Numbered from the stretch's first letter, positions 18,959 through 63,305 are shown. The stretch: 64,000 nt of DNA from an uncultured bacterium (GCA_964567755.1 CAZMNW010000061.1:4890-68889); one strand, 5' to 3'. Translations and numbers: made by a program. The notes: generated by a model from the sequence alone, not told the origin.

Positions 18959-19768
18959 ATGGAGAAGCGATCCTCGACACCCATCATGGTCGTAGTTGGT
19001 CTCGTCCTTCTCGTTGCCCTTGCGGCCGCTGCACTGCATGCGCAGGGGTTGGTGGGCAAACGTGTGCGTGGCTTTCCTTCTCCTGGCGACAAGCCCGAAG
19101 GTCTGGCCTGGGATGGGCAGTTCCTGTGGTGCAACAACTTCAACGGCGGCTCGCTGCACAAGCTGGATCCATCCGACGGCCGTGTGATCGCCCACTATCA
19201 GGGCGTCGGCTTGCCGGCCAACCCTGAAGGTTTGGCGTGGGACGGTGAGCATCTGTGGACCTGCGATTGGCACGCCGGCATCATCGTCAAAATTCGCCCG
19301 ACATCCGAGGGCATCCAAGTCGTGGCCAATTACTCAAAACCGGATTCCTCGGGCCCGAACGTCGGACTTGAGTGGGACGGGACGTCGTTGTGGCTCAGTT
19401 GCTGGCCAGATGTGTCCAAGGGGCTGGGGTTCGGTCAACTCTTTCGTCTGCACCCGGCGACACTCGCGGTGCAGCAGAGGCTCATCCTGCCGGTGCATTT
19501 CATCGAGGACCTGGCCTGGGATGGGCGCTATCTTTGGAGCAGCGATTGGTTGAACGGTATCGGCTTTGCCATCGACCCGGCGACTGGAGACACGTTACAT
19601 ACCTATCGGACGCCGGGTCCGAATCCCGTCGGCAGTGCCTGGGATGGCACGTCGCTCTGGATCACGGACACGGATCGTGATTCCATCTGGGCGCTCGACA
19701 TCGATGGTGCGACGCCTGCGACTGCGAACTCGTGGAGTCAGGTGAAACGCCTGTTCCGCGGGCGTTGA
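18959..19768 (+). CDS. Secreted beta-propeller protein (glutaminyl cyclase/YncE-like repeats) with C-terminal W-x-x-V-K-x-L-F tail
   Basis: Signal peptide; repeated GLAWDG units; ends TPATANSWSQVKRLFRGR. Confidence 0.8.
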   Translation: MEKRSSTPIMVVVGLVLLVALAAAALHAQGLVGKRVRGFPSPGDKPEGLAWDGQFLWCNNFNGGSLHKLDPSDGRVIAHYQGVGLPANPEGLAWDGEHLWTCDWHAGIIVKIRPTSEGIQVVANYSKPDSSGPNVGLEWDGTSLWLSCWPDVSKGLGFGQLFRLHPATLAVQQRLILPVHFIEDLAWDGRYLWSSDWLNGIGFAIDPATGDTLHTYRTPGPNPVGSAWDGTSLWITDTDRDSIWALDIDGATPATANSWSQVKRLFRGR

Positions 19769-19794
19769 TGGCCTCGCACCGAGAGGAATCATCG

Positions 19795-20472
19795 ATGGAT
19801 GCCAAGGAGCGCGCTGCTCGTTCGGCGGTCGGAGAGGTGCAGAGCGGGCAAGTTCTCGGGCTCGGCACCGGCTCGACGGCGATGAAGGCCCTGTACGTTC
19901 TCGCCGAGCGCATCCGCAACGAGGGCTTGGATGTCATCGGCGTTCCCACCTCGGTGGCGACGCAGGCGGAAGCCGAGAAGCTCGGCATCCCACTCACGAC
20001 TCTCTCGGCGCATCCGGAGATCGATCTCGCCTTCGATGGCGCCGATCAAGTGGATGCAACCTTGGCGGTCATCAAAGGTTATGGCGGCGCCTTGCTGCGC
20101 GAGAAAATCGTGGCGCGATGCGCCAAGCGTTTCCTCGTCATGGTGGACACCTCGAAACTGGCGCAGATATTGTGCATCGCCGTTCCCGTCGAGGTCCTGC
20201 CCTTCGGAGTCGGCGCTGCCAAGCGGCATCTGGAATCCCTGGGCGGCCAGGTGCGGCAGCGGCTTGGCCCAGACGCGCCCTACGTCTCGGATAACGGCAA
20301 TCACATTCTCGACGTCGACTTCGGTTCCATCCTGGACCCGGCGGCGCTCGCGGCGCGGCTCGACGCCATCCCGGGTGTCATGGATCACGGTCTCTTCGTC
20401 GGGATGGTGGATGCGCTGCACGTCGGAGAGTCCACCGCGGCCCGCATCGTGCATCGCCCCGCGCCGCGCTGA
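19795..20472 (+). CDS. rpiA: Ribose-5-phosphate isomerase A
   Basis: GLGTGST, DGAD, KGYGGALLREK and SDNGNHILD. Confidence 0.96.
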   Translation: MDAKERAARSAVGEVQSGQVLGLGTGSTAMKALYVLAERIRNEGLDVIGVPTSVATQAEAEKLGIPLTTLSAHPEIDLAFDGADQVDATLAVIKGYGGALLREKIVARCAKRFLVMVDTSKLAQILCIAVPVEVLPFGVGAAKRHLESLGGQVRQRLGPDAPYVSDNGNHILDVDFGSILDPAALAARLDAIPGVMDHGLFVGMVDALHVGESTAARIVHRPAPR

Positions 20473-20614
20473 ACACGCCCTGGTGTAGTGTCTCAGAAAA
20501 ATAATGTCGGCTGTTCTCGGCAGCTTGCCGGCATGCCCCCGTACGACGAAGCAGGCTGAGTTGACGGGCCCGACGGCATCGGTTGGCACGACTCGGTCTG
20601 TGCAGGTTCATTTG

Positions 20615-21917: not shown

Positions 21918-22937
21918 CTAGAACAGCTCCTGCTGCAACTTCGGGCGCGTGAACGTCCCCGTTCGGATGTGGATTTCACCATTACGGCCCGCGGCGAACC
22001 CGAGTCGGCGCGTGTGCAGTTCCCACTGGCGCTCGATCATGTCCCAGTAGATTCCCTCGCCGCGCTGGCGCGCGAAGAAGCGCGAATCATCGAGCTTGCC
22101 GGCGCGGACGTCATGGATCCGGTTCTCGATCCGGGCCGCGCGCCCGGGCAGAGCCGCGCGCAGACGCGCGAGGAACACGTCGCGCACATTTCCCGGCAGC
22201 CGCAAAAGCACGCACTGCGCATAAAGAGCCCCCGCGTCGTGTGCGCGCTCGAGGATGCGTGGAATGTCTTCATCGTTCAGGCCGGGGATGAGCGGAGCCA
22301 CCGAGACACCGGTCGGGATTCCGGCGGCCGCCAGACGCCGGATGGCTTCGAAGCGACGGGACACCGGCGCCACACGCGGCTCGATCGCACGTCCGATGGC
22401 GTCATCCGCAAAGGCGATGCTGGCGAACACGCGCACGCTGGCATGCCGATGCAGCTCCAGCAGCAGATCGATGTCCCGTTCGATCAGCGGCGATTTCGTG
22501 ATGATGCCGACGGGATTCCGAAACTCGCGGCACACCTCGAGGCAACGGCGGGTCAATCGCCAGGAGCTCTCGAGCGGCTGGTAGCAGTCGGTGTTGCCGG
22601 AAAAGACGACGAGCTCTCCGCTCCATGACGAGCGCAGAAATGCCGCGCGCAGGAGCTCCGGCGCCCGAGGTTTGACCACGATCTTGGTGTCGAAGTCGGT
22701 TCCGGCACCGAATCCGAGGTACTCGTGCGTGGCGCGCGCATAGCAATAGGCACATGCATGTGCACAGCCGCGGTAGGGGTTGACGCTCCAGCGGAACGGC
22801 AAATCAGGGCTCGTGTTCGCGCTCAGAATCTCGCGGCTCGAATCCTCGAACACCTGGAGCTCGGCGGGTGGTGGCTCGTCGAGCCACTCGCGATCGATCG
22901 CGGCAAAAGGGTTGGGAGGATTGTCGACCCGGCGCAT
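21918..22937 (-). CDS. PA0069/Rv2578c-family radical SAM protein (SplB-like)
   Basis: SVNPYRGCAHACAYCYAR, SGNTDCYQPLE and ITKSPLIERDIDLL. Confidence 0.92.
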   Translation of the reverse strand: MRRVDNPPNPFAAIDREWLDEPPPAELQVFEDSSREILSANTSPDLPFRWSVNPYRGCAHACAYCYARATHEYLGFGAGTDFDTKIVVKPRAPELLRAAFLRSSWSGELVVFSGNTDCYQPLESSWRLTRRCLEVCREFRNPVGIITKSPLIERDIDLLLELHRHASVRVFASIAFADDAIGRAIEPRVAPVSRRFEAIRRLAAAGIPTGVSVAPLIPGLNDEDIPRILERAHDAGALYAQCVLLRLPGNVRDVFLARLRAALPGRAARIENRIHDVRAGKLDDSRFFARQRGEGIYWDMIERQWELHTRRLGFAAGRNGEIHIRTGTFTRPKLQQELF

Positions 22938-23043
22938 GCAGACCCCCACGTGAACGTGTGTCCGGCGGAGGGCATCGCAACCGGTGGCGCCGAGAGTAGG
23001 GTGAAAGTCCTTCGCAATCAAGCCCTTGGCGTGCGCTTCGGTT

Positions 23044-24525
23044 TCAGCGCTGTGCGAGGCGTGTGGCGATGGCCTCGGCTTCCTTGATGCAAGCATTCAT
23101 CGCGATGCCGCGATAGGAATTGCCCGAAAGATGCAGACCGATGTGCCGTTGGAGAGCGGTGTCGATGCGCGCCAACGTGCGCGCATGACCCACAGGGTAT
23201 TGAGGAATGCCTCGCGGATGACGGATGACGCCAAGGACCTCGGGGTCGCCGTGCAGATTCAAGAGCCGATGCAGCGTGGTGAGCGCGCGCTGCGTGAGCT
23301 GGGCGTCGGTTTCCTCGACAGCGCCGGGGTCGCGTGCACCTCCAATCATCGTGCGCAGCAGCACCTGCCCGTCTCGTGCACGGCCCGGAAAGACCCAGGA
23401 GTCGAAGAGCGTGCCGAGAATCGGCAGTTTCTCGCAGGCTGGTACCAGGAAGCCGAAGCCACGGCTCACATGCTGCAAATCCTGGGCGCGGAAATCGAGG
23501 CACACTACCGCCACCGGGGCTGAAGGGATGCTGACTACCGCGCTCGCCAACTCGGCGTCGAGCGGATGCAGCAGTGCCGCGGCTTTCCATGCCGGGCCTG
23601 CGATCACCACGTCCGTGGCTTCGACACTCTCGCCATCAGGAATCGTCAATCGCCAGCGCGGCTCGCCAAGGTGTGATGCCCCCCGTGCGCCCCCCACAGG
23701 GGCAGGGTCTCCGATCGGCGCAATCGCATCGACCGGTGTGTCCAAGTGCAACCGCGGGCCGAGAGCCTGCACCAAAGCGCGAACGAGCGTTTCCATGCCA
23801 TCGACGAAGGAAGTGAGCGTGCCACCTGGCCCGATGGGACCGCCCGCCGCGCCACGACGATCTCCTTCTCCCCGCGCACCGGCAGTCATGGTCGCGTCCG
23901 GCTCGTCTCTGCTGGCCCGAAGTTCCCGGCGCCGGGCAATCATGGCCTTGAACAAGCCACCGCAACGGCGCTCCATTTCACGCATGCGCGGGAACGCGCA
24001 CTCGAGGCTCAGCGTTCTCGAGTCCCCGGCATAGATCCCGGTCACCATCGCATCGACCAAGACCTCGGCAGCCTCACGGCCGATGCGTCGTGCGGCGAAA
24101 TCGAAAACGGATTCGTCGGCATCTTCCCGTCGCGGGGGTTGCGCCCATTCCAGGAGTACGCGAGCCCTACCGCGCAGGCTCAAGACATCGCTGGTGAGGA
24201 ACTGCGCCGGACGTTGCGGCAGCGCGCGCAAGGCACCGGCGCGCACGATCCAACGAGTGCTCGCGTCACTGCTCGCCTGCACCACCTGAGGCTGCAGTCC
24301 CAGGAACTCGATCAGGCGCGTGGTGGCCGGCTCGTTGTCGAGCCAACCGTTCGGACCCCATTCACACAAGGTGCCGCTACGTCGCTCGCTCCGAATGTTG
24401 CCGCCCGCACGCCCATGGGTCTCGAACACCTGGACGTCGATCCCCAGCCGTTGGAGGTGAAACCCCAAGGCCAAGCCGGAAATGCCGCCGCCCACTACGG
24501 CAACTCGAGTCCGGAGCGTGGCCAT
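23044..24525 (-). CDS. hemG: Protoporphyrinogen oxidase (HemY-type flavoprotein)
   Basis: VGGGISGL FAD motif, EWGPNG, GIYAGD and GNSYRGIAMNACI. Confidence 0.93.
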   Translation of the reverse strand: MATLRTRVAVVGGGISGLALGFHLQRLGIDVQVFETHGRAGGNIRSERRSGTLCEWGPNGWLDNEPATTRLIEFLGLQPQVVQASSDASTRWIVRAGALRALPQRPAQFLTSDVLSLRGRARVLLEWAQPPRREDADESVFDFAARRIGREAAEVLVDAMVTGIYAGDSRTLSLECAFPRMREMERRCGGLFKAMIARRRELRASRDEPDATMTAGARGEGDRRGAAGGPIGPGGTLTSFVDGMETLVRALVQALGPRLHLDTPVDAIAPIGDPAPVGGARGASHLGEPRWRLTIPDGESVEATDVVIAGPAWKAAALLHPLDAELASAVVSIPSAPVAVVCLDFRAQDLQHVSRGFGFLVPACEKLPILGTLFDSWVFPGRARDGQVLLRTMIGGARDPGAVEETDAQLTQRALTTLHRLLNLHGDPEVLGVIRHPRGIPQYPVGHARTLARIDTALQRHIGLHLSGNSYRGIAMNACIKEAEAIATRLAQR

Positions 24526-24579
24526 GCGAACCACCTGCCGAGGTGCGGCGCCAATGCCCTGGGGCTCGTGGCGGCGCGA

Positions 24580-25980
24580 TCAGATCGTGCGGGAAAACGT
24601 CTTCTCGGTGTCCTTATCCTTCAAGTACCGATCGAACGTCATGGCGATGTTGCGGATGAAGACCCGACCCACGCGGGTGACGGCGATCGTTGCAACATCG
24701 AGATGCAGAAAGCCGCTCTGCTCATGTGCGCGCAGGCCTTCGAGTTCGGCGGCGAAATAGGTGCCGAAGTCGAGTCCGAAGCGCCGCTCGACGTCCTGGA
24801 GATCGAGATGGAAGTTGCACATGATCTGAGTGATCACGTGCCGGCGAATGGCGTCGTCCGACGACAGCAGCACGCCACGCAGCACCGGCAGGCGATCGGC
24901 GCGCAACGAATCGTAATAGGAATCTTGGTTCTTGTGGTTCTGGATGTAGGCGCCCTGAAGGTCGCCGATGCCGGAAACACCGAAAGCGATGGCATCGGTC
25001 GCGGGCTTGACCGTGTAGCCCATGAAGTTGCGGTGCAGCACCCGGTTCTGCAAGGCGCGGGCCATCTCGTCGCTGGGCAACGCGAAGTGATCCATGCCGA
25101 TCTGCACGTAGCCGGCATCCGTGAACTTGCGCACGCCGAGGAGGTAGAGCTCCACCTTCAGCTCCGGCGGCGGCAGCATGTCTTCGGTCATGACGTTCTG
25201 GTTGCCGGATTTCCATGGTACGAAGGCGAAGCTGTACATCGCCACGCGCTCGGGACGCATGCCGAGGACCGAGTCGAGCGTGCGCTCGAACGTGACGCAG
25301 GTCTGCAGCGGCAAACCATAGATGAGATCGACGTTGATGCTGTCGAAGCCCTGGCGGCGACTGTAGTCGAAGAGCTCGCGCGTGCCGGGCTCGTCCTGAT
25401 AGCGGCTGATGATGGCTTGCACCTCGGGGGTGAAGTCCTGCACCCCCATGCTGAGCCGGTTGAAACCGAACTCGCGCAAGACATCGATATGCTCCTGCGT
25501 GGTGACGCGTGGATCGACCTCGATGGCGACCTCGGCCTCGGGAAGGATCTCGAAGCGGTCGAGGACGGTTTGATGCAACTGGCGCATTTCCGCCGGTGAG
25601 TAATAGGTGGGTGTGCCCCCGCCCCAGTGGTACTGCGCCACCTGGCGCCGGTGCGGCAGATGCTTGCTCACGAGGTCGATCTCGCGCTGGAGGTATCCCA
25701 GGTACTCGAGTGCGCGCTCGCGTTTCTTGGTGATGACTACGTGGCAGCCGCAGAAGGTGCAACGCTCGTGACAGAAGGGCAGGTGAAAATACAGCGACAG
25801 CGGTTCGTTCGCGTGCGTGTCCGCCTCGGCGAGCTTGCCCTGGTAATCGGCTTCGCCTACGCCGGCATGAAACTCCACCGCTGTGGGATAGGACGTGTAG
25901 CGCGGCCCTGGCCGATCGAACCTGCGGATCAGCTCCGCTGTCAGCTCGGGCTCTGGAGGATGCGCCTGCGAGGGTCTCAT
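24580..25980 (-). CDS. hemN: Oxygen-independent coproporphyrinogen III oxidase
   Basis: GPRYTSYPTA, HLPFCHERCTFCGC, WGGGTPT and RNFMGY. Confidence 0.96.
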   Translation of the reverse strand: MRPSQAHPPEPELTAELIRRFDRPGPRYTSYPTAVEFHAGVGEADYQGKLAEADTHANEPLSLYFHLPFCHERCTFCGCHVVITKKRERALEYLGYLQREIDLVSKHLPHRRQVAQYHWGGGTPTYYSPAEMRQLHQTVLDRFEILPEAEVAIEVDPRVTTQEHIDVLREFGFNRLSMGVQDFTPEVQAIISRYQDEPGTRELFDYSRRQGFDSINVDLIYGLPLQTCVTFERTLDSVLGMRPERVAMYSFAFVPWKSGNQNVMTEDMLPPPELKVELYLLGVRKFTDAGYVQIGMDHFALPSDEMARALQNRVLHRNFMGYTVKPATDAIAFGVSGIGDLQGAYIQNHKNQDSYYDSLRADRLPVLRGVLLSSDDAIRRHVITQIMCNFHLDLQDVERRFGLDFGTYFAAELEGLRAHEQSGFLHLDVATIAVTRVGRVFIRNIAMTFDRYLKDKDTEKTFSRTI

Positions 25981-26098
25981 GGATGTCACGGCTTCTTTGC
26001 GATCCGGGTGAGCACACTGGAGCAACTCTCAGATGGAATATACGGACCCGGCTTGCCGACGACCACCCCGTGAGGGGTGCGGGTGCGGGCTCTGGCCC

Positions 26099-26136
26099 AA
26101 AAAAGCCAGAGGCCCCGTCTGCACGGGGCCCCTGGT
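26099..26136 (-). terminator. Rho-independent terminator of the PEP-CTERM gene
   Basis: On the minus strand, CCAGGGGCCCCGT-GCAG-ACGGGGCCTCTGG is followed by CTTTTTT. Confidence 0.8.
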
Positions 26137-26159
26137 TTCTTGCTCGATGAGGGAAGGGG

Positions 26160-26885
26160 TTACGACCTACGACGGCGTTTGCGCGCCAGGCCGGCGCTCG
26201 CCATGCCCACGCCCAAGAGGACGAGAGTCGTGGGTTCGGGGACGGCGTGTTCTGCGTCGTGCGAGAACGGTGCGAAGGCGTTGACGAGATCCTTGTCCGT
26301 GCCGGTGGCCGTGGGATCGAACGTGCCATCGCCTCTGGTGACGAACAGATCCATATGGATCCCGGTCACTGACGCGTCCAGGGAATTGATGGTGAAGTCG
26401 AACGCCTCGGCGTAGCCATCGCCAGGATCGCCGCCAGGAGGCTGGGTATTGAAAATGGTCTGCACAGAGCCGTCGAACTGGAACTCATAGATCTCGAAAT
26501 AGGTGTCGAAGATTCCGTGCGGCGCGAGAGAATTGTTGTCCTGGATCGGTGGATTGCCGAACCCCGAAGTAAACAGGGACAATGCGCCGCCATCGTTTTC
26601 GACGCTGACATCGAAACCATCGAAGTTGATCATGGGCACTGCCGAGACCACGAGATAGGCGTTCCGCGTCGCGGCGCCAGCCGCCTCCCACGCGAAATCA
26701 CCGTTGCCGGGTGACGCGTTCGCATAGGCGAATAGGCTGAACGGATTCGTGTTGGTGAACCAGGTCTGGCTTCCCACGTTATACGACCACGAACCGACAC
26801 CTGGACCCAACTGCAGTGACGGCAAGGCGTACGCCGAACCGCCGAACGTTCCCAGGAGGACGAGAGTGACGATTAGTCTTTTCAT
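26160..26885 (-). CDS. PEP-CTERM surface protein (passenger resembles choice-of-anchor N type)
   Basis: Signal peptide; C-terminal AVPEPTTLVLLGVGMASAGL-ARKRRRRS. Confidence 0.92.
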   Translation of the reverse strand: MKRLIVTLVLLGTFGGSAYALPSLQLGPGVGSWSYNVGSQTWFTNTNPFSLFAYANASPGNGDFAWEAAGAATRNAYLVVSAVPMINFDGFDVSVENDGGALSLFTSGFGNPPIQDNNSLAPHGIFDTYFEIYEFQFDGSVQTIFNTQPPGGDPGDGYAEAFDFTINSLDASVTGIHMDLFVTRGDGTFDPTATGTDKDLVNAFAPFSHDAEHAVPEPTTLVLLGVGMASAGLARKRRRRS

Positions 26886-26923
26886 GATTTCCCTCCGATA
26901 GTCTTTTCATGATTTCCCTCCGA
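26874..26923. repeat. Perfect 25-bp tandem duplication covering the RBS and first four codons of the PEP-CTERM gene
   Basis: TAGTCTTTTCATGATTTCCCTCCGA occurs at 26874-26898 and again at 26899-26923. Confidence 0.95.
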
Positions 26924-26959
26924 GCAAGATCAGGACATGGTAACCCTTGTTCTCCACGC

Positions 26960-26975
26960 AGCAATGACGGTGCCG
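26960..26975 (-). promoter_or_regulatory. Putative sigma54 (-24/-12) promoter of the PEP-CTERM gene
   Basis: Minus strand reads CGGCAC-CGTCA-TTGCT, versus consensus TGGCAC-N5-TTGCW. Confidence 0.7.
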
Positions 26976-27287
26976 TCTTGTAACTGCATGTTTTTGTGCT
27001 GTTTAACAAAAACGCATCAGGTTATTTGTAAAGAGTTCCAACACCTGATCGGGGGGCGCCCTCTGTCCACCTCAGGGTCCACCCGCGAGTGGCTCTCAGG
27101 GCCCTCTGCGGGCGGCTCTGCGAGGCGAGCTCCCAAGTCTCCATGGATGCCAGAAAATGTCGGGTGTAAGGACTGGGCGAACTGCCGACATCGCGAGGAA
27201 TACGGAGTCGGCGTCACAAAACAGCATAAGATTATTTATTACAGCAATTTATATCGATACCGACGCCAGTGAGACGCTGCCGGATGG

Positions 27288-27305
27288 GTGTCGTCTTTCT
27301 GACAC
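27288..27305. promoter_or_regulatory. Putative enhancer (UAS) palindrome for a sigma54 activator
   Basis: GTGTC-N8-GACAC (TGT-N10-ACA), about 310 bp upstream of the -24 box, with AT-rich tracts in between. Confidence 0.45.
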
Positions 27306-27356
27306 ATTCAGGCAGAGTCTGCGCCCCCGGCTTCTGTGCGCCGGCCGCCAGTCCCG

Positions 27357-28679
27357 TCAAAGACGCCGTAAGAGGTGATGTCCGATGAGGGGGCGACCCT
27401 TCGAATCCCTGACGTGCACCAAGTCCTCGGGGACGAGGTCCAGCTTCTCGAACAAGGCAGTCAGGGCGTCGTCGCTGTAGCGCCGGGTGAAGAGCATGGT
27501 GCGAATCCGCTGCTGCATTTTCTCTTCCTGGATGACCAGGTCGTGACAAAAGTTCACACTGCCCGGAACCTTGCAGCTGTCGTCCCCACCATCATAGCGC
27601 TGCAAGGTCACGCGCAAGTTCACTTCGCGCGGCAGCCGTCCCTGCGAGACTTCCCACACGCGATACGGCATCTCGAGGAGCGTTGCGCGGGTGGATTCTT
27701 CCGCCGTGCGCTCGCCTTTCGACACCGTCATCGGGTAGACGGGGTCGCTTTCGATGGGATCGAGCTTGCGGGCGACTTCGATCCAGACTAAGTCGCCGGG
27801 GCGTGTGAGGCGGTGGAGTGTGTGCCGAATGAAGGATTCCTCGTCGCGCACGTTGCCGAGGATGTTGCCAAGAACGAGAACGATGCGGCACCCATCGGTC
27901 CGTTGATCCCCGGCCAAGCGCGACACGAAGTCGAGCTTCCCGTACTCGAAATCGGCGCACACGGGGATCATCTGCCGCATTCCGGCACCGCGAGCCACCC
28001 ACAGGTTCGGTTCCGACAACGCCCGCTTCGCCGCTTTGAGGAGCAAGGGCATGGAGAGATCCACCGGCATGTAGGTGAGCCAGGCGAAGGGGCGGTGCAA
28101 CTGCTGTTCGCGCTGCACGACCTTGCGCAGGATGCGAGATTCCTTCTCGCCTTCTCCCGGACCCAGGCTTATGACCTCGACCCCTTGGCCCTCGCGCAGG
28201 GACCCCAACCATTTTTCGGCGCAGCGCTCGACGCCATGCAGCCATTCTTCCTGGCCGTAGCCGCGCTTGATCAGATTCTCCCAGGCGAGCGCGCAGTGCG
28301 GGTCGTAGTAGAGGAACCGGTGCCCAAGGTAGGAATCGTGATGGTACTTGTCACCGAACTGACGCAGTAGCTCCGAAGGCCCCGCCCCTTCTTCCACCTC
28401 CAGCCTGACCGACGTCGAATTCGGGTCGACGGAGTGCGTCTGCGCCAAAATGGAACCCAGATGCGCCGCCAAGGCGCGTTTCACCCCTTCGAGCGTCACG
28501 AGCTTGAGGTTCTCGCCGAGCCCCTTCTTCCAGTTCTTGACCTGCTCGCGGGAGACGCCGACCAGATCGGCGATCTCCTGATCGTCGGTGATGCGCAAGA
28601 CGCCGAGCAGGTGCAGCAGCAAGTCGATGACTTGGCTAGATGGAGCGCCACGGATCTCCCTTTCGGCCTTTTTGGTCAT
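27357..28679 (-). CDS. N-terminal HTH domain fused to an EgtD-like (L-histidine N-alpha-methyltransferase family) SAM-binding domain
   Basis: DQEIADLVGVSREQVKNWKKG HTH; ISLGPGEGEKE, VDLSMPLL, CADFE, LGNILGN and PGD methyltransferase motifs. Confidence 0.72.
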   Translation of the reverse strand: MTKKAEREIRGAPSSQVIDLLLHLLGVLRITDDQEIADLVGVSREQVKNWKKGLGENLKLVTLEGVKRALAAHLGSILAQTHSVDPNSTSVRLEVEEGAGPSELLRQFGDKYHHDSYLGHRFLYYDPHCALAWENLIKRGYGQEEWLHGVERCAEKWLGSLREGQGVEVISLGPGEGEKESRILRKVVQREQQLHRPFAWLTYMPVDLSMPLLLKAAKRALSEPNLWVARGAGMRQMIPVCADFEYGKLDFVSRLAGDQRTDGCRIVLVLGNILGNVRDEESFIRHTLHRLTRPGDLVWIEVARKLDPIESDPVYPMTVSKGERTAEESTRATLLEMPYRVWEVSQGRLPREVNLRVTLQRYDGGDDSCKVPGSVNFCHDLVIQEEKMQQRIRTMLFTRRYSDDALTALFEKLDLVPEDLVHVRDSKGRPLIGHHLLRRL

Positions 28680-28792
28680 CCCGCGCCTTCTTTCGCCTCG
28701 GGGCACCCTTTTTTCGCGCTGGCCGATTGCTTTTCCAGTTGGGAACGGATCGGGGCCTGCATACGCTTGGTTGTAGCGAGAGTCCAGACCGC

Positions 28793-28891
28793 TTCGACGA
28801 TCTCAACGGGGTCTCTCGGTGGGGACAGCCTCCAGCTCGCGGAGGATACAGCGCCGCCGAGGAGCACGCCAAGCAGAGACCCCGTGTCGAA
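28793..28891. other. Candidate structured RNA or cis-element in the divergent intergenic region
   Basis: Nested helices TTCGAC/GTCGAA, ACGGGGTCTCT/AGAGACCCCGT, CGGTGG/CCGCCG and CCTCC/GGAGG. Confidence 0.4.
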
Positions 28892-28968
28892 ACGAACACT
28901 CCCGCGGTCCAGCGGACAACGCCAGAGCAGGCCGGGCTGACCGGCCCCGGTGAGAAAGGAAGAGAGCC

Positions 28969-30249
28969 ATGCGTCCACTCGTCCTCGCAACGCTCCTGGT
29001 TGCATCGTTGAGCTCGGCCCCCCGGTCCGCGATGGCGGACCACGGCGACGTGATCTTCGTCGACTTTCCGGAGCTGGCCGAGTTCGGATACCTCGTGGTG
29101 ATCGATGGGGCGGAGTATTGGGCGCCGCACGCGTTTCGCTACGAAGGCAACTGGGCGCCGTACGCGCGCGGCTACCTCTACGAGGATCCGGCCGAGGGCC
29201 TCGTCTGGGTGTCCTCCGATCCCTGGGGATTCATCACCGAACACTACGGGTACTGGCGTCATCACGATCAGTACGGTTACGTGTGGCGCCCGCTCTATCC
29301 GTTGCAATGGCGGCCGTACGTCGCATCGGTGTTCCACAATCAACGCGGCGCTATCATCGGCTGGAGCCCGTTCTATACGGAGGCGTGGGACCATGGATTC
29401 TATCGCGTCGGTTACGGCTTCGACGATAGCTTCTGGGCGCCGTATTGGGGTCGGGTCCATTACGGGGATTTCTACTACCACCACTACCAGCGCTTCTCCG
29501 GCTGGTACGTGGGAGTGACGTTGTACGATTACGACGTCTATTATCGCGACGCCCCCGATCATTGCTATCGGCGCGACTGGGAATACCGCGAGCGGCACGA
29601 GCGCAAGCGCCACGACTCCGGGTCAGCGGCATACGGGTTCCGGGACCGGCGGGAAGCCAAGCGTACTGAACAATCCACCGTGCGGCGGCGCGAGGATGCT
29701 CCGGCACCGGCGGCGGAATTGCGCGGGGCGGTGTCCATGCCAGCGCGAAACTTGGAGGTCGCACGCGAGACTCGGGAGAATCGTCAGCGCACCTTCGCGC
29801 AGAGGTTCGACACGAGCCGGGTGAAGTCGAGCGATGTGCAGCGGCCGGCCGCCACCCGGGCCGCGGCTCCTGCACGTCCGGCGGCGCAGTCTCCGGCGGA
29901 AAGGGCGCTGGACGTGGTGCAACCGCAACAAGCCGCAAGCTCGCGCAACGCGGAGCCCGTAGCGCATGCACGATCGCAGGCCACGGTCGAGCCGCGCCGT
30001 GTGTCGTTGGAACCGCGGCAACCGCGTGCAGAATCGCGCCGTGCACCCGAGGTGCGGGAGTCGCAACCCTCGCGCCCGGCGCGCGAGGTGCAGGTGACAC
30101 AGCCTTCGCGTCAGGTCGACCGCGGACGCGCGGAGCCTGCCCGATCGAGCCAGGTCGAGGCGAGCCGGTCGCGGCCGAGCAACCCACCGGCGGAGCGCGT
30201 CAAGGCTGCCTTCGAGTCGCGCTCGAAGGACCGAAAGGGGCGAGATTAG
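28969..30249 (+). CDS. Secreted DUF6600-like aromatic-rich protein with a long R/S/P/A-rich disordered tail
   Basis: Signal peptide; WAPYARG...WVSSDPWGFITEHYGYW motif; low-complexity C-terminal half. Confidence 0.75.
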   Translation: MRPLVLATLLVASLSSAPRSAMADHGDVIFVDFPELAEFGYLVVIDGAEYWAPHAFRYEGNWAPYARGYLYEDPAEGLVWVSSDPWGFITEHYGYWRHHDQYGYVWRPLYPLQWRPYVASVFHNQRGAIIGWSPFYTEAWDHGFYRVGYGFDDSFWAPYWGRVHYGDFYYHHYQRFSGWYVGVTLYDYDVYYRDAPDHCYRRDWEYRERHERKRHDSGSAAYGFRDRREAKRTEQSTVRRREDAPAPAAELRGAVSMPARNLEVARETRENRQRTFAQRFDTSRVKSSDVQRPAATRAAAPARPAAQSPAERALDVVQPQQAASSRNAEPVAHARSQATVEPRRVSLEPRQPRAESRRAPEVRESQPSRPAREVQVTQPSRQVDRGRAEPARSSQVEASRSRPSNPPAERVKAAFESRSKDRKGRD

Positions 30250-30410
30250 TCGATCGCCCCTTCGGGCGAGCCGAGGCCCGCGAGAGGATCGCTCGCCGTG
30301 ACTGGAATGGGTGATGCAGGACGCGCATGGTAATCTAGAGTTGGTCCGCCGCGGATTGAGTACCAGCGTTGCCTCCGCGCGCGGTGAGAGCGTCGAGCGC
30401 GGGTGGATGC

Positions 30411-32833: not shown

Positions 32834-32914
32834 GGCCGTGACCCCCGTTTTGGCGCGTGTGTCATGAATGAGTGCCTGGCTCGAAAGGCACCGGACTCAC
32901 GCATGGGGACGCGT

Positions 32915-35656: not shown

Positions 35657-35746
35657 CGGGCCAGTTTACCCCAAGCGGAGGATCACCGGCGTCGCGCGTG
35701 AGATGAGGTGGAGCAGCGACGGTGAACCGAGGCCGTGGCGAAGGTC

Positions 35747-38109: not shown

Positions 38110-38234
38110 CCCATTGCGCCAACGCGCGTGCATCGTTCGCGGCCAGAGGCCGGTTCACCCGCGCGTGCAGTCGGAATCTATCACAGGATCTCGAGTACCG
38201 GGAGGTCAGAGCGGGGTGTGCCGGCCGGCGTTCT

Positions 38235-40055
38235 TCATTTCAACACGATGAGCTTGCGCGTTTCGCGTTCGACATGGCCGGGCTGGTCGAGGAAGGCAGC
38301 CTGCAAACGCAGATAGTAGGCGCCCGACGGCACGCCGTGGCCGCCATCGTCCAGGCCGTTCCACTCGATCGAGTAACTGGTGGCCTGCAACGGTTCGGAA
38401 AGCAACGCGCGCACGAGCCGGCCGCGAACGTCGAAGAGATGCAGGGTCACGTGCGCCGGTGCGGGCAGCTCGATGCGAATCGGTGTCGAGGGCACAAGGG
38501 GATAGGGGTTGGGCACGATGCGAGCGGTTCGGCCACCGAACGGCGGTGGCTCGGGACCCAAGTCGCGGAGCGCACGGTATGCCGCGAACGCATCGACGAT
38601 GCCCCACCCTTGGTAACGATCGGGTGCCGCGGCGCGGCTCGCGGTGGAACGCAAGGCATCGCGGATCTGCAGCGGTGTTGCGTCGGGGAAGGCGGAGATC
38701 AGCAGTGCCGCCACTCCGGCGACCAGTGGACATGCAGCCGACGTGCCGCCACCCGCGCCGTAGACCATGGGGTTGTCCGCTTGCGCCATGATGGTGCCGA
38801 TGCCTTCGGCGAGAACGTCCGGTTTGGTGCGTCCATCGGCGGTCGGCCCGTAGGAGCTGAGGATGGAGTAGACGCCGTTCCGATCGACGGCGCCGACGCC
38901 GATGACGGAATCGCCGTCGGCCGGTGCGAAGAGAGTATTGGGTGCGGTGAAGATTCCCTCGTTGCCGGCTGCATTCACCACGACGATTCCACGCGCCACG
39001 GCCATGTCGGCGGCACGGGTGATGACAGTCGTGTTGCCATCCATGTCTTCCCAGCCGTGATCGAATCGAGGATCGTCGAAAGTGCGGTAACCGACGGACG
39101 AGCTCACGACGTCAGCGCCAATGCTATCCGCCCATTCCACTGCCGCGACCCACAGGTCCTCCTCGAGCGGAGATTCGACGGCGTCGTTCTCGGTGCGTGC
39201 CAGGAGGAAGTCGGCTTCGAAGGCGGGTCCGATGAGCTTCCCGGGTTTGTATCCAGCCAGAATCGACAGTGTTTCCAACCCATGCGACGAGCACACCTGC
39301 CCCGCAGGGCAGGGAGCGGGGTCGGGATTTTCTTCATCGAGGACGAAGTCCCAGGTGGCATGGATACGCAGGTTCGCCATGGATTCGTGCGACAGCTGAC
39401 GATAGCCATTGTCGAAGTGGGCGATGAGGACGCCGCTTCCGGTCAGCCCCATGCGATGCAGGTCGACGACGCCGATTTGGTTCAGCTGGTTGAACGATGG
39501 GCCATACGGAAACGGTGACGGTGGCGTATCCAGTAAACCGGAGTCGGCCTGCCGCCGCATATCCGCGGCGGATGGCGTCGCGGCCTTGGATGCGGACGAG
39601 GGATCCGGGGCTCGTCGCGCCAAAGGTTGAATGCCACGCACGCACGGCAGCGCGCGCAACGCCGCCAGTTGCGCCGGTGTGGCGTCGACGCTCACCGCAT
39701 TGAGCCACTTCGAGAGCTGCCGCAGCCGCTGCACCCGTGCAGCAACCGCCGCCACATAAGATGGCTCGAGCCGCAGATCGCCGCCATCGATCACCTGTTG
39801 TGGCTCGCGCACCTTGAGCCGGCGCCGGAGCGATCGCTCGGAAACGAGCGTCTGCGCCACCGATGGCTTGGCCGTGCTCTGTGGACCCTTGTCACGGAAG
39901 AAAACCCAGGCGCGGAGGACGAGGCCAGGTTTGGGCTCGCTGTCCTCTGCGCGCGCAGCGCTTGTTCCGGGACTCCAAGACACGCCGAGGAGACTCCCCG
40001 CAATGCACAGCATCCGGAGTCGAGTGAGGAGATTGGCTCGGCGTGACAACGGCAT
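38235..40055 (-). CDS. Secreted S8 (subtilase) serine peptidase with a C-terminal FlgD-Ig/T9SS-CTD-like domain
   Basis: Triad FDNG, SHG and GTSAACP; tail PNPY...LFDVRGRLVR...EWNGLDDGG..VPSGAYYLRL...KLIVLK. Confidence 0.92.
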   Translation of the reverse strand: MPLSRRANLLTRLRMLCIAGSLLGVSWSPGTSAARAEDSEPKPGLVLRAWVFFRDKGPQSTAKPSVAQTLVSERSLRRRLKVREPQQVIDGGDLRLEPSYVAAVAARVQRLRQLSKWLNAVSVDATPAQLAALRALPCVRGIQPLARRAPDPSSASKAATPSAADMRRQADSGLLDTPPSPFPYGPSFNQLNQIGVVDLHRMGLTGSGVLIAHFDNGYRQLSHESMANLRIHATWDFVLDEENPDPAPCPAGQVCSSHGLETLSILAGYKPGKLIGPAFEADFLLARTENDAVESPLEEDLWVAAVEWADSIGADVVSSSVGYRTFDDPRFDHGWEDMDGNTTVITRAADMAVARGIVVVNAAGNEGIFTAPNTLFAPADGDSVIGVGAVDRNGVYSILSSYGPTADGRTKPDVLAEGIGTIMAQADNPMVYGAGGGTSAACPLVAGVAALLISAFPDATPLQIRDALRSTASRAAAPDRYQGWGIVDAFAAYRALRDLGPEPPPFGGRTARIVPNPYPLVPSTPIRIELPAPAHVTLHLFDVRGRLVRALLSEPLQATSYSIEWNGLDDGGHGVPSGAYYLRLQAAFLDQPGHVERETRKLIVLK

Positions 40056-40103
40056 GCACCCTCGGCGGAACGGGCTTCATCATTATAGCATCCGACCGGC
40101 GGA

Positions 40104-45074: not shown

Positions 45075-45195
45075 GCGAAGACCTCTCGGATTCCAAGACC
45101 CGCGCACCATATCACGCCAGGGGATCCGCCGGCACGGTTTCGGGCGCAGTGGTGTCACACTTCGATCCAGCCCGAAAGGCCGTCACGCGCGTTGG

Positions 45196-48847: not shown

Positions 48848-49498
48848 TCAAGGCCTGGCGAAGAGCGCCTTGACCTCACCCCAGGTCATCGTTTCCACGG
48901 GCACGGTCGGAGGATCCAGGTCGAACGAAATGAACCAGAAGCCCCCCAGATTCGAGGTCGAAGTCACCGAGCCCGACTGGAAACTAGCCGCGCCGAAGAC
49001 GATGTCCTCAGGCGCATCCGGCAGATCGTGTCCGTTGAGGAGTGTGAACGGCGATTCTTCGTCACTGAACTCGATTGCCAGGATGCCGGTCTCCAAATTT
49101 CCCGGGAAGTTGACCGTCGTGTTCGAGAATCCTGCGAAGTCGAGATAGTCACCGGCACACACACTGTCACACGTGCTCACGCCCAGCAGGTCAGTTGTCC
49201 AAACATGTGATTCGATGGTGATGGTGAACTGGTGCGTGCTTCCGAGGGGAAAGATGAAGCTGCGCTCCGAAGGCCCCGTTTCCACCTCGGTGGCCGCGGT
49301 GGGTACGTACGTGACCCGGCCGCTCACCTGGCTGCCGATGCTGATCCCCGACGGCGGGGATGCCCCGAATCCGCCGACATCGTTGACCGTTCCGGTGAAG
49401 GTGAGCACGACTTCGGCATTGGCCGGCCCCAAAGCGAGAGTTCCGGCGAGCAACGCGCCGGTAAGAAGGAACCAAGAGCGCATTCGCAGTGGTTTCAT
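48848..49498 (-). CDS. Secreted beta-rich protein with C-terminal TWGEVKALF tail
   Basis: AAAGGA RBS; signal peptide; ends PTVPVETMTWGEVKALFARP. Confidence 0.8.
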   Translation of the reverse strand: MKPLRMRSWFLLTGALLAGTLALGPANAEVVLTFTGTVNDVGGFGASPPSGISIGSQVSGRVTYVPTAATEVETGPSERSFIFPLGSTHQFTITIESHVWTTDLLGVSTCDSVCAGDYLDFAGFSNTTVNFPGNLETGILAIEFSDEESPFTLLNGHDLPDAPEDIVFGAASFQSGSVTSTSNLGGFWFISFDLDPPTVPVETMTWGEVKALFARP

Positions 49499-49753
49499 TT
49501 CGGTCCTTTCTGTGGCGTCGACCGTGGCGACCACGAAGATGGAGATTCTCAAACTCTAGCAGAAGGCAATTCCGGCTGGCGTTTCGTCGCCGCCGCTCGC
49601 GAAGTCGCGGTCTTGCGGCCTCATGTCGGCATCGTGATGGTGCGAAAGTGAGCACTTTGCCCCAAGTGAATCCGCCGGCGCGGCGAGACGCAGGTGCCGA
49701 GGAGTCTGCGCCTCGAGACACGCGACGTCCAGGATCAGCGCGAATAGTGAGCC

Positions 49754-51340: not shown

Positions 51341-52023
51341 GATTCCGCCTCGATGTGCCCGTCACGCATGCGCAGTCGACGCGATGCGCGCGCCGCGAGC
51401 TCGGGATTGTGGGTCACGAGGACGATGGCGACACCAGCCGCATGCAGTGTCTCCAGCAAGGCAGCGATCTGTGCCCCCGTGGCCTCATCGAGCTCTCCCG
51501 TGGGTTCGTCGGCGAGCAACAGCTGCGGCCGGTTGACCAGGGCGCGCGCGATCGCCACGCGCTGCTGTTCGCCGCCGGAGAGCTGTCCCGGCTTGTGCCG
51601 CAGCCGGTGTGCGAGCCCGACGGTGGTCAGAACCTCGCGGACACGGGCTTCGCGCTCCGCCTTGGGCAAGCGGGCTTCGAGTGCCGGCAACGCCACGTTC
51701 TCGCCCGCGGTCAACATGGGCAGCAGGAAGAAGCGTTGGAAGACGAAACCAAGGGTGCGCAGTCGCAGTTCGGTGCGCATGGCATCGGACGCACCGATCA
51801 TGTCGCGCCCAAAGAGCCGGAGCTCGCCGGAGGTCGGTACGTCGACCGCGCCCAGGAGGTGCAGCAGCGTCGACTTGCCACATCCAGAGGGTCCCATGAT
51901 GGAAACGAACTCGCCCGGCTGCACGCTCAAGTTCACCGCGCGCAGCGCGTGAATGTCATGACCGTCCAGGACATAATCCTTGCGCAAGTCCCGTGCGACG
52001 ACGATCGGATCCGCTGGCTTCAT
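51337..52023 (-). CDS. ABC transporter ATP-binding protein (LolD/MacB-like)
   Basis: GPSGCGKST, LSGGEQQRVAIARAL, LADEPTGELD and VTH. Confidence 0.96.
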   Translation of the reverse strand: MKPADPIVVARDLRKDYVLDGHDIHALRAVNLSVQPGEFVSIMGPSGCGKSTLLHLLGAVDVPTSGELRLFGRDMIGASDAMRTELRLRTLGFVFQRFFLLPMLTAGENVALPALEARLPKAEREARVREVLTTVGLAHRLRHKPGQLSGGEQQRVAIARALVNRPQLLLADEPTGELDEATGAQIAALLETLHAAGVAIVLVTHNPELAARASRRLRMRDGHIEAES

Positions 52024-59057: not shown

Positions 59058-59078
59058 GCAGTCAGAGGTGCGAAGATC

Positions 59079-60723: not shown

Positions 60724-60738
60724 GATTCTTCCTCCTTC

Positions 60739-61056: not shown

Positions 61057-61077
61057 GTGGCCACCCCCTTCAATCGT

Positions 61078-61114: not shown

Positions 61115-61227
61115 GGGCTCGAAAGCGAGACTGGTCTCTCAATCGTCGGGCGCTAGCCGCTGGAATCATGGGGGCGGCGGATCGCCTGCCCCATGGTGGG
61201 CCCGATCCGACGACATCGGATGAACGC

Positions 61228-62544
61228 TCAACGCGCGCGGTAGAGTTCTTTCAGGTCGCCCCAGCCGGTGTCGCGCACCGCGGTGGGATTGCGGCGAATG
61301 CGATAAATGCTTCCCCCGTAGGAACAAACATAGACCCCATCCGGGCCCGTTTCCATGTCGGTGATGGTGCCGAAGCCACTGCCGATGCGGAAGGCGTTGC
61401 GCTCGGCGACACTGTCGGCGATGCGGTCGGACGTCTCGGGCGTTGGCATGATGAGGCTGGCACGATCTGCGCTCAGCTCGAAGCGATACAGAGTGCCCGT
61501 GTTGTTGTCGCCGACCAAGAGATCCTGCGCGTACTCCGGTCCGAGCACGCCGCCGCGCACGAAGTGCATGGCGGCGACGCCGACCGGCGCGCGCCATGAA
61601 AACTGCGGATCTTCGTAGCGGGATCCCGTCGCCACCCACAAATCGCCGAGACCTTGCGGATCCTCCGCATCAGGACCCATGATCTGTTCCCAACCGCTGT
61701 TGAAACCCGGGAGCACACGGTTGATCTCGTCGAAGACGGTCGGGCCGTTCTCGGTATCCCAGAGAACGGCGGTCGCGGGGTCGAAGTCGAGGCCGAAGCT
61801 GTTGCGGACCCCGTAGGCATAGACCTTGGCCATGTTGCCGCCGAGGCCGAAGAAGGGGTTGTCCGTGGGTGGGGAGCCATCGTCATTGACGCGAAACAGG
61901 ATCCCGGAATCGTCGGGGGCCGGGCCGGTCGGGTAATTCTCCAACTGGCCGTTGCGATTCAAGTCGCCAACCGCACCGTACAGCATGCCATCGGGCCCGA
62001 AGAGGATGACGCCGCCATCGTGGTTCGGACCCGGCGTGGCCGGCAGCGCCAGGATGAGCGTCGGCGCCGACAGACCGCCTCCATCCCAGACGTAGCGCTC
62101 TACCCGATGCGCGGCAACGGAGTTCTGGTCCGCATTGTCGATGGCTGTGCTGCTTGCGGAGTAGTAGACGTACACAGAATGGTTGCTCGCAAACGCCGGA
62201 TGCAAGGCGATCCCCAGTAAACCCCGCTCGCTACGGCTGTTCACCGCCAGGTCGAGCGCTGTGCCGACGATCATGCTGCCGCGAACGTGCATGACCCGGC
62301 CGGTTGCTTTCTCGCACACAAGGAACTCGAGCGGCTGCGCCGCCAGGCCCGGCAGCAGTGCCATGCTCGTGGGTTCCGCCAACGACGAGACTTGCAGTAT
62401 GACCTCGAGCGCAGGATCGACGACGGTTTGTGCCTGCGCCTTCGCCGCGAACACAGCAAACGCCGCCAAACTCAGGCGAAAAACCCACAGTGTCGAGAAC
62501 GGGAAGACACCATGGACGTGATGCGATCGCGTCGGTCGGATCAT
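61228..62544 (-). CDS. Secreted PQQ-dependent glucose/sorbosone dehydrogenase-family propeller with C-terminal W-G-x-L-K-x-L-Y tail
   Basis: ERGLLGIALHP, HDGG, YGVRNSFG, ENGP..FDEIN and GWEQIMG; ends PTAVRDTGWGDLKELYRAR. Confidence 0.9.
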   Translation of the reverse strand: MIRPTRSHHVHGVFPFSTLWVFRLSLAAFAVFAAKAQAQTVVDPALEVILQVSSLAEPTSMALLPGLAAQPLEFLVCEKATGRVMHVRGSMIVGTALDLAVNSRSERGLLGIALHPAFASNHSVYVYYSASSTAIDNADQNSVAAHRVERYVWDGGGLSAPTLILALPATPGPNHDGGVILFGPDGMLYGAVGDLNRNGQLENYPTGPAPDDSGILFRVNDDGSPPTDNPFFGLGGNMAKVYAYGVRNSFGLDFDPATAVLWDTENGPTVFDEINRVLPGFNSGWEQIMGPDAEDPQGLGDLWVATGSRYEDPQFSWRAPVGVAAMHFVRGGVLGPEYAQDLLVGDNNTGTLYRFELSADRASLIMPTPETSDRIADSVAERNAFRIGSGFGTITDMETGPDGVYVCSYGGSIYRIRRNPTAVRDTGWGDLKELYRAR

Positions 62545-62633
62545 GGTGTGGCGAGTCTAACCAAAACACAGCGGCGCGGCCACCGCAGGGTTGGCCGCGC
62601 CGCAGCAGGAGGTGTAGCGCCGTTGCGTGCTGG

Positions 62634-63305
62634 CTACTGGTAGAGGTGCTTGATCGTGCTCCAAGTCGCTTCGGTCAGCGCGACGAAGCCACATGAAGTG
62701 CCCGCGCACGTCGCGCTGTTCACGGCCGAAGTGAACGCCGCCGGTTCCTGCCCGCCGAGCGCCGGGTCGCCCTGCTGATAGGTCAAGCACACCTGCGTGA
62801 ACGCAGGCGCATCGCAGAGTTGCACCGAAGGGCACATGAACGATGGGTTGACCGGTGTATCGGTGCGCCGCACCACGAGCTGATGCTCGGTCGTCATCCC
62901 GAGCACGTGCACCGAGCCGAGGAGGACCTTGTCGCCCGCGAGGCCGGTCTGCGTCTGGCAGCTGCCGAACGACAGGTAGAGCCCGCCGCCGCTGCCGTTG
63001 TCCATGGGATCCCCGTTGGAGACGGAGACGCCACCAGCGGGATTCCAGCTGAAGTTGACGCCCGGGGCCGCAGGCTCGACGGACACTTTGAACTCGGCAC
63101 CGGTGACCCCGGCCGCCGTCGCGCCGCCGGTGACGGCGAAGATGTACAAGCGGCCATTGCCGGCGGCATTCATGGTGACACAACAGGCCGTGCCGGCGGC
63201 GTCACCGAACGCGCCGATATAGCCATTGTTGGGTGGTGCAGCGGCAGCGCTCCCCACGAGCGCCGAGCACAGGCCCACGAGGGCCAAGAACGACGAGCGA
63301 AGCAT
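62634..63305 (-). CDS. Secreted Cys-rich beta-sandwich protein with C-terminal TWSTIKHLY tail
   Basis: GGAGGT RBS; signal peptide; eight Cys; ends VALTEATWSTIKHLYQ. Confidence 0.8.
   Translation of the reverse strand: MLRSSFLALVGLCSALVGSAAAAPPNNGYIGAFGDAAGTACCVTMNAAGNGRLYIFAVTGGATAAGVTGAEFKVSVEPAAPGVNFSWNPAGGVSVSNGDPMDNGSGGGLYLSFGSCQTQTGLAGDKVLLGSVHVLGMTTEHQLVVRRTDTPVNPSFMCPSVQLCDAPAFTQVCLTYQQGDPALGGQEPAAFTSAVNSATCAGTSCGFVALTEATWSTIKHLYQ

Follow-up and report, generated by a model that had tools for sequence, protein, structure and literature searches.

We analysed a 64,000-nucleotide stretch of DNA from an uncultured bacterium (GCA_964567755.1, CAZMNW010000061.1:4890-68889; hereafter the window, with positions counted from its first nucleotide) and found that four of its exported proteins end in the same short C-terminal tail, built around a tryptophan, a lysine and an aromatic residue at fixed spacing. 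The tail is a genuine modular protein-level tag at the C-terminus of Sec-exported proteins, lipoproteins included. It is not confined to a single lineage; it spans several little-studied bacterial phyla, and it is interchangeable with known sorting signals. Judging from these comparisons, we consider it likely that the tail is a new C-terminal tag for sorting or anchoring, without a transmembrane segment.

Translated in all six frames and scanned with W-x-x-[VLIM]-K-x-[LMIV]-[FYW], the window gave exactly four matches, at 19733-19756(+), 48860-48883(-), 61240-61263(-) and 62640-62663(-). Each copy closes a long open reading frame (ORF) with high third-position G+C, and a stop codon lies 1-3 residues beyond it. 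In 300 dinucleotide-preserving shuffles of the window (G+C, 64%), the mean was 0.033 matches per window and 0.007 matches near a stop. Thus, the shared motif reported by an initial annotation of this DNA is real and far from a chance occurrence. The four proteins and their tails are as follows.

18959..19768, + strand: tail protein 1, 269 aa (from translation and motif scan), with a signal peptide (crude score 13), a beta-propeller-like passenger and the tail; C-terminus TPATANSWSQVKRLFRGR; tail at 19703-19765, W codon at 19733-19735.
48848..49534, - strand: tail protein 2, 216-228 aa depending on the choice of start codon, with signal peptide MKPLRMRSWFLLTGALLAGTLALGPANA and the tail; C-terminus TVPVETMTWGEVKALFARP; tail at 48851-48913.
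61228..62544, - strand: tail protein 3, 438 aa, with a signal peptide, a glucose/sorbosone dehydrogenase (GSDH) beta-propeller and the tail; C-terminus PTAVRDTGWGDLKELYRAR; tail at 61231-61293.
62634..63308, - strand: tail protein 4, 224 aa, with a signal peptide, a Cys-rich passenger and the tail; C-terminus VALTEATWSTIKHLYQ; tail at 62637-62693.

The translations exactly reproduced the four C-termini quoted in the initial annotation. Before the stop codon, the proteins end in ...GATPATANS-WSQVKRLF-RGR, ...PPTVPVETMT-WGEVKALF-ARP, ...RNPTAVRDTG-WGDLKELY-RAR and ...CGFVALTEAT-WSTIKHLY-Q, respectively; a syntenic orthologue of tail protein 4 in locus L003 ends in WSQVKHLYQ. All four carry an N-terminal basic-hydrophobic-AxA leader, in agreement with the signal peptides first assigned to them. 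Their passengers are unrelated, as had been claimed. Tail protein 3 matched GSDH (PF07995, E=4e-50), the family that the initial annotation called a PQQ-dehydrogenase; tail protein 1 showed only weak DUF6923/SGL propeller matches, and the passengers of tail proteins 2 and 4 had no Pfam or NCBIfam match. The tail region of the four proteins was touched by no Pfam or NCBIfam model. It is too short and too polar for a membrane span, which agrees with the reported lack of a transmembrane anchor.

The DNA pattern TGGGGNNNNVTNAARNNNCTNTWCCG (no stop codon within) was matched against 185,579 species-representative genomes, which yielded at least 120 loci. In 852 kb of fetched loci, 131 of 150 protein-regex matches were within 8 residues of a stop; this count and the taxon counts below hold among the matches listed, and the taxon labels are record titles of metagenome-assembled genomes (MAGs). 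A genuine C-terminal tail was present in 54 of the 56 loci from six named groups within FCB (the Fibrobacteres-Chlorobi-Bacteroidetes superphylum): Eisenbacteria (26/27), Krumholzibacteriota (7/7), Latescibacterota (4/4), Fibrobacteraceae (9/10), Gemmatimonadota (5/5) and Kapaibacterium/Melioribacteraceae (3/3). Unclassified 'bacterium' genomes had it in 41 of 44 loci, and other named taxa in 3 of 19. The remaining 16 loci of the latter group were internal matches or tiny spurious ORFs and provided an internal negative control; Bacteroidia and Flavobacteriia yielded spurious matches only. Genuine tails were seen on contigs titled Verrucomicrobiia, Alphaproteobacteria and Limnocylindria (L073, L107 and L113), two of them shorter than 3 kb, and the L107 protein has family members in Kapaibacterium and Melioribacteraceae; these contigs were likely misbinned or mislabelled. 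The spread over several phyla contradicts the initial description of the tail as lineage-specific, and it confirms the accompanying remark on similar tails in related candidate phyla.

The tails of the fetched loci had the canonical form [C/G]-x-P-[VT]-[PAS]-[TVA]-E-x-[ST]-[ST]-W-G-x-[VI]-K-x-L-[YF]-R-stop, from which the window tails depart by a slight extension. Conservation covers a unit of about 18 residues, including the linker P-[VT]-[PAS]-[TVA]-E-x-[ST]-[ST]. Among 130 tails, 108 ended exactly at the Arg at +8, and conservation was absent upstream of about position -10, which ruled out the tail as part of a larger conserved domain. A hidden Markov model (HMM) of the tail gave a bimodal distribution of scores over all locus ORFs. 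Variants found with it, such as WGSIKAFYR, WGHIKSDYR and WGALKRRYR, indicated that the Leu at +6 is variable and that W, G/S, [IVL], K and [YF] are kept. Synonymous codons varied freely (GGC/GGA/GGT/GGG, CTG/CTC/CTT, CGC/CGG/CGT/CGA), and tail genes ended with all three stop codons. These results indicated that conservation is at the protein level rather than in a DNA element, and that the tail is under selection as protein. A DNA repeat at gene 3' ends was ruled out by the free synonymous variation and by conservation across phyla, and a truncated PEP-CTERM of the kind that PF07589 would recognize was ruled out because this model had no match on the tail proteins.

The carriers are exported proteins. 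A crude signal-peptide score of at least 11 was obtained for 97 of 104 tail proteins, compared with 1 of 15 cytoplasmic controls. Their passengers are diverse: 102 tail proteins contained 29 Pfam families, none common to all, and Pfam and NCBIfam scans of these proteins found no shared model. No PDB chain carries the tail (a PDB sequence search with the tail profile gave no match at E<=10), and a known family thus does not explain it. The passengers include Beta_helix, lamin-tail domain (LTD), NHL, SGL and GSDH propellers, carbohydrate-binding modules (CBMs), cupredoxins, an ExeM-like nuclease, and choice-of-anchor E and V domains. An M36 peptidase passenger matched rhombosortase-dependent and myxosortase-dependent models, ScyF-like passengers matched an NCBIfam model defined as a PEP-CTERM protein, and an MXAN_6652-like passenger belongs to a MYXO-CTERM family.

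Several carriers lie close together, with four in the 64-kb window and tandem arrays in loci L067 and L061. The L067 array (L067:1724-6972; MAG 'bacterium isolate F1F2.bin.167', JBJXGV010000065.1) encodes eight tandem paralogous lipoproteins of about 215-395 aa; in most of them, an acidic stretch comes after a lipobox such as ...LGCGDDD. Seven of the eight end with the tail, and the eighth has 184 more residues between the motif and the stop.

Extra copies of the tail were found in some proteins. The strongest profile matches included P0241, P0244, P0257, P0285 and P0318, which carry 2-4 tandem C-terminal tails; in P0243, P0286, P0294 and P0324, a second copy is located just after the signal peptide. 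In P0252, P0247, P0248, P0305, P0325, P0348 and P0386, the motif follows each repeat of a lipoprotein module of about 190 aa. Three of these (P0252, P0325 and P0386) are fusions of 2-3 modules related to the L067 lipoproteins, and fusion of tandem paralogues like those of the L067 array is the probable origin of the repeated-module proteins. The tandem and extra copies fit a binding motif that tolerates or exploits multivalency (avidity). A 925-aa tape-measure-like protein, P0242, contains five repeats, ...AGWSALKALYRWSPLG..., that score strongly against the tail profile; its 'GWSALKALYRWSPLG' repeats resemble the tail strikingly closely, and we treated this resemblance as coincidental.

The tail replaces known C-terminal signals in homologous proteins. 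All nine of the orthologues closest to the window GSDH (57-82% identity) retain the tail as W-G-x-[VIL]-K-x-x-[YF]-R-x-[RK]. The next-closest homologues (53-61% identity) have a type IX secretion-like FlgD_ig domain of about 85 aa in its place. Both types share one junction, the last propeller strand and the linker ...IYRIxRxPT, after which either the tail or FlgD_ig follows; more distant homologues end in FG-GAP or other modules. The closest named homologue, from a Candidatus Latescibacterota genome (CP070763), is the one indication of the window's taxonomic position; the window GSDH was also found on a Logan assembly of SRR9952630.

A second exchange was observed in choice-of-anchor E proteins. 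A Gemmatimonadetes tail protein served as the query; of its 120 best homologues, 60 ended in the tail (...VTYxYxCPVPTExxTWGxIKxLYR) and 54 in PEP-CTERM (...VTYxYxVPEP-(hydrophobic helix)-RRRR), so that the tail sits exactly where PEP-CTERM sits. The other six comprised two near-variant tails (K to R in P0156; Ile at the aromatic position in P0171), three PEP-CTERM-like endings with a variant motif and one truncated protein. In this homologue set, the aromatic residue was followed by R, K, H, N, Q or none. Other tail proteins matched NCBIfam families defined as dependent on PEP-CTERM, rhombosortase, myxosortase or MYXO-CTERM. The exchanges with FlgD_ig and PEP-CTERM strengthen the sorting or anchoring reading. 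Two proteins in the window carry these other signals.

26160..26885, - strand: classical PEP-CTERM protein (PF07589, E=6.9e-6; from translation), ending in ...AVPEPTTLVLLGVGMASAGLARKRRRRS.
38235..40055, - strand: subtilase (Peptidase_S8) with a C-terminal FlgD_ig domain at about 38298-38486 (PF00082, PF13860).

The matches of PF07589 to the former and of PF13860 to the latter served as positive controls. The window organism has at least three kinds of C-terminal signal: the tail, PEP-CTERM and FlgD_ig.

We built a 19-position profile from the window, GSDH-orthologue and choice-of-anchor E tails and searched 1.84 billion cluster representatives with full HMMER and no positional constraint. An earlier profile from the window and GSDH tails only was too weak, with canonical tails at E>=8.5; addition of the 60 choice-of-anchor E tails made it strong enough. 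The search returned 682 proteins at E<=0.001. In 141 of the 149 best of these matches, the core motif ended no more than 5 residues from the C-terminus, and in 107 of the 149 exactly one residue followed the aromatic position. Together with the locus matches near stops, these counts bear out the expected enrichment at C-termini. When the profile was calibrated locally, E<=0.001 was reached by only 3 of 95 independent tails. By extrapolation from this, not by count, tail-bearing clusters are probably more numerous than the 682 matches by at least an order of magnitude. Cluster look-ups of the profile matches returned only 'hypothetical protein' entries from metagenomes.

To describe the physical nature of the tail, we used AlphaFold2 models and the hydrophobic moment. 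The window GSDH was modelled with a mean predicted local distance difference test (pLDDT) score of 90.5; its last 17 residues left the propeller at pLDDT 49-56, with a 4-residue helix in the tail at pLDDT of about 50. The choice-of-anchor E protein P0127 (mean pLDDT, 91.6) has a 9-residue coil linker followed by a helix of 7 residues, from W208 to L214, at pLDDT of about 65. In both models, the tail stands apart from the folded domain. The hydrophobic moment of the W..R nonamer exceeded that of shuffled sequences both at 100 degrees (z=10) and at 180 degrees (z=7.8). Of the amphipathic helix proposed by the initial annotation, the amphipathicity is supported by these values, and the helix is hinted at by the models; a helical tail is plausible, and a strand is also possible.

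We propose the following explanation. A Pro/Thr-rich, extended linker precedes the core, and W-G-x-[IV]-K-x-L-[YF] would probably form an amphipathic helix of 7-9 residues, for which the preceding Ser/Thr may act as a cap. The tail usually ends with one basic residue and the free carboxylate, and it has neither a transmembrane segment nor a folded domain. After export to the periplasm, a conserved envelope component (receptor, translocon or enzyme) may recognize the tail, and this recognition would set the fate of the passenger, which would be retained or displayed at the outer membrane or cell surface. On homologous passengers, the tail would thereby do the job of PEP-CTERM, MYXO-/GlyGly-CTERM or type IX secretion system (T9SS) C-terminal domains. 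Within this explanation, we tentatively favour non-covalent docking of the helix to a conserved, specific receptor. An outer-membrane export signal, read by a T9SS-related or novel translocon, is a less likely version; an interfacial lipid or lipopolysaccharide anchor ranks third, and covalent attachment via the conserved Lys is the least likely, with little to be expected of it. The near-universal single residue after the aromatic position favours recognition of a free end.

On a larger scale, the chances seem evenly balanced that the tail marks a hitherto unrecognized system by which the FCB phyla other than Bacteroidia sort or anchor proteins (Eisenbacteria, Krumholzibacteriota, Latescibacterota, Fibrobacterota, Gemmatimonadota and Ignavibacteria-like lineages). 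Such a system would have its own receptor, translocon or enzyme, and a C-terminal helix of about 10 residues would send roughly a hundred exported proteins in each genome to the envelope or surface. The interpretation as a sorting signal, as first suggested, is supported by the C-terminal enrichment, the lack of a known family and the exchanges with FlgD_ig and PEP-CTERM; neither of the two outcomes that the initial annotation named as refuting it was observed.

Several points weigh against the proposed explanation. The helix in the tail was predicted with low confidence (pLDDT 49-65), and the hydrophobic moment fails to separate a helix from a strand. The internal and N-terminal copies speak against a strict need for a free C-terminus. 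A periplasmic role would suit some passengers, GSDH among them, just as well, which bears on the surface part of the claim. No machinery, whether co-distributed or encoded nearby, emerged when 4931 ORFs from the window and the 123 fetched loci were clustered by all-against-all BLAST. The quality of the taxon labels also has to be considered, as these are MAG record titles.

Among rival explanations, the tail could be a minimal signal for the T9SS or a related system, so that the machinery handling FlgD_ig would export, and possibly process, the passenger. The alternation of the tail and FlgD_ig at one junction in GSDH orthologues is consistent with this, as is the presence of FlgD_ig cargo in the window and at least 15 other fetched loci; moreover, the tail taxa belong to the FCB superphylum, where T9SS occurs, and both signals end with hydrophobic residues, a basic residue and the carboxylate. 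Known T9SS signals, however, are folded beta-sandwiches of 70-100 aa, whereas the tail spans about 18 aa, with coil and helix as its predicted structure, and no T9SS C-terminal domain model matched it. The classic T9SS hosts, Bacteroidia and Flavobacteriia, gave only spurious matches among those listed, and the tail is likewise exchanged for PEP-CTERM, a non-T9SS signal. We therefore regard a T9SS signal as improbable. An interfacial anchor, in which a short cationic amphipathic helix lies in the leaflet headgroups or on lipopolysaccharide as in PBP5/6, agrees with the hydrophobic moment at 100 degrees and with the AlphaFold2 helix from W to L on a flexible linker. W, Y, K and R are typical of the membrane interface, W, I/V, L and Y/F would lie on one face, and tandem copies would raise avidity. 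A helix of 7-9 residues is nevertheless short compared with about 16-20 in known anchors. Generic lipid binders usually conserve a pattern, but the tail conserves W, G, K and the aromatic residue across phyla with a precise stop position, and it also occurs on lipoproteins, which are already lipid-anchored. This rival, too, appears to have a low probability.

The conserved Lys could also serve as a covalent tether to peptidoglycan or another polymer, like that of Braun's lipoprotein. Lys and the nearby [YF]-R are kept in the detected tails and variants, the N-terminal lipid plus C-terminal tail of the L067 proteins mirrors the architecture of Braun's lipoprotein, and the signals replaced by the tail are mostly covalent-anchoring ones. 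The Lys, however, is 4-5 residues from the end rather than terminal, R replaces it in the homologue P0156, many passengers look surface or extracellular rather than periplasmic, and no link to an enzyme was found in the loci compared; a covalent tether is thus very unlikely. Lastly, the tail may not be a sorting element at all. C-terminal tags can be degrons, and a degron or quality-control tag for periplasmic proteases, a by-product of a repeated DNA or RNA element at the 3' ends of genes, or a part of the passenger fold might be considered. The codon variation and cross-phylum conservation described above exclude a DNA element, and a fold element is excluded by the unrelated passengers, the lack of upstream conservation and the AlphaFold2 models. 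If it were a degron, the tail would be expected neither to take the exact place of PEP-CTERM or FlgD_ig domains nor to persist on a considerable fraction of the exported proteins. We give explanations without sorting hardly any weight. Recognition of the tail by an envelope component, as proposed above, remains the reading that we prefer.

The gene surroundings were examined by rough gene calling and Pfam. The window encodes aconitase, MqnC, a Ser/Thr kinase with PD40 repeats and a MacB/FtsX pair, in addition to the following features.

11191-14127: cytochrome oxidase subunits I and III (Pfam).
21918-41327: haem-biosynthesis cluster with unrelated genes interleaved (Pfam); its members are radical-SAM HemN, a protoporphyrinogen-oxidase-like flavoprotein, UroD, a class-III aminotransferase (HemL-like) and ferrochelatase.
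44394-45182: M50 protease, near tail protein 2.
45046-46335: Omp85-family gene, near tail protein 2.
47376-48587, - strand: tetratricopeptide repeat (TPR) protein, on one flank of tail protein 2.
49754-51361, - strand: 535-aa ORF without a family match, on the other flank of tail protein 2.

TPR proteins often bind C-terminal peptides. The arrangement of TPR protein, tail protein 2 and 535-aa ORF did not recur in the other loci, and the TPR protein, the Omp85 protein, the MacB/FtsX pair and four unmatched ORFs gave no informative NCBIfam match. The recurrent ORF clusters were FlgD_ig cargo, ABC-F ATPases, Ser/Thr kinases, sigma-54 activators and similar generic neighbours. A Peptidase_C25 gene beside two tail genes in L083 was set aside as a lead to the machinery, being a single occurrence. 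SprA, PorV and PorU were not identified in the sequence at hand, in which only FlgD_ig cargo was seen. Past the right end of the window, L001:1-1161 encodes a Toluene_X/FadL-family outer-membrane protein, about 8-9 kb from two adjacent tail genes; PorV of T9SS is FadL-like. Machinery is also typically missing from the neighbourhood of PEP-CTERM and T9SS cargo.

The tail seems to mark a considerable fraction of the proteins exported by several widespread, almost uncultured phyla of soil, sediment and gut, where its carriers are now annotated as hypothetical or by their passenger domain alone. A model of the tail would improve annotation and the prediction of surface proteomes, and it would be a handle for finding the machinery. 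The tail could also show whether diderm bacteria sort proteins by a short linear helix without a membrane-spanning segment.

We compared the tail with known C-terminal signals. Small C-terminal sorting domains are tripartite, with a signature motif, a transmembrane segment and an Arg cluster (bioRxiv 10.1101/2023.06.07.544157). Like PEP-CTERM, LPXTG, GlyGly-CTERM, MYXO-CTERM and PGF-CTERM, the tail is short, lies at the extreme C-terminus of signal-peptide proteins and occurs on many unrelated passengers; its Pro/Glu linker PVPTE loosely recalls the VPEP of PEP-CTERM. Four features by which small C-terminal sorting signals are recognized in practice under Haft-type criteria, namely C-terminal placement, signal peptides, diverse passengers with several carriers per genome, and alternative anchors in homologues, were found for the tail. 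It differs from PEP-CTERM in having no hydrophobic transmembrane segment, only 9 residues after the linker with a conserved Lys at +4, and no Arg cluster, usually ending with a single R and sometimes with K, H, N, Q or nothing. A protein ending in the tail cannot stay anchored in the inner membrane to await an intramembrane sortase. PF07589 and the NCBIfam CTERM models had no match on the tail of the 102 tail proteins.

T9SS domains (type A, TIGR04183/PF18962; FlgD_ig, PF13860) share with the tail a basic C-terminal residue, the same superphylum and coexistence in the same genomes. In structure, they are folded beta-sandwiches of 70-100 residues, in contrast to the linear motif of about 18 residues described here, and PF13860, PF18962 and TIGR04183 did not match the tail. 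The PBP5/PBP6-type anchors of E. coli share with the tail its predicted amphipathic and cationic character and its attachment by a flexible linker to the C-terminus of a Sec-exported soluble domain. Their helix has about 16-20 residues, whereas the tail is half as long, with a predicted helix of 4-7 residues at pLDDT 49-65; the tail also differs by its residue-level conservation, strict stop placement, lipoprotein carriers and tandem copies. Braun's lipoprotein ends in ...KYRK and is cross-linked to meso-diaminopimelate by L,D-transpeptidases. It resembles the tail in having Lys with Tyr-Arg near the carboxyl end, and some tail carriers are lipoproteins. Its Lys is terminal, however, whereas that of the tail is 4-5 residues from an end that is usually Arg, and the tail passengers are instead enzymes and adhesin-like domains. 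The outer-membrane beta-signal of beta-barrel assembly machinery (BAM) substrates places the aromatic residue last in a beta-barrel; the tail has one residue beyond it in 107 of the 149 best matches, and its passengers are soluble folds rather than beta-barrels.

No entry of Pfam (2025 copy), NCBIfam release 20.0 or the PDB covers the tail, and we found no description of it in the literature on C-terminal sorting signals, T9SS and choice-of-anchor proteins. The tail is thus probably an undescribed protein-sorting or anchoring tag. Each of LPXTG, PEP-CTERM and the T9SS C-terminal domains gave access to an entire system of secretion or anchoring, enzymes included. With neither a transmembrane segment nor a folded domain, and with near-invariant W, G, K and aromatic residues, the architecture of the tail differs from every described class, and the likelihood that the tail belongs to a system new in category is substantial.

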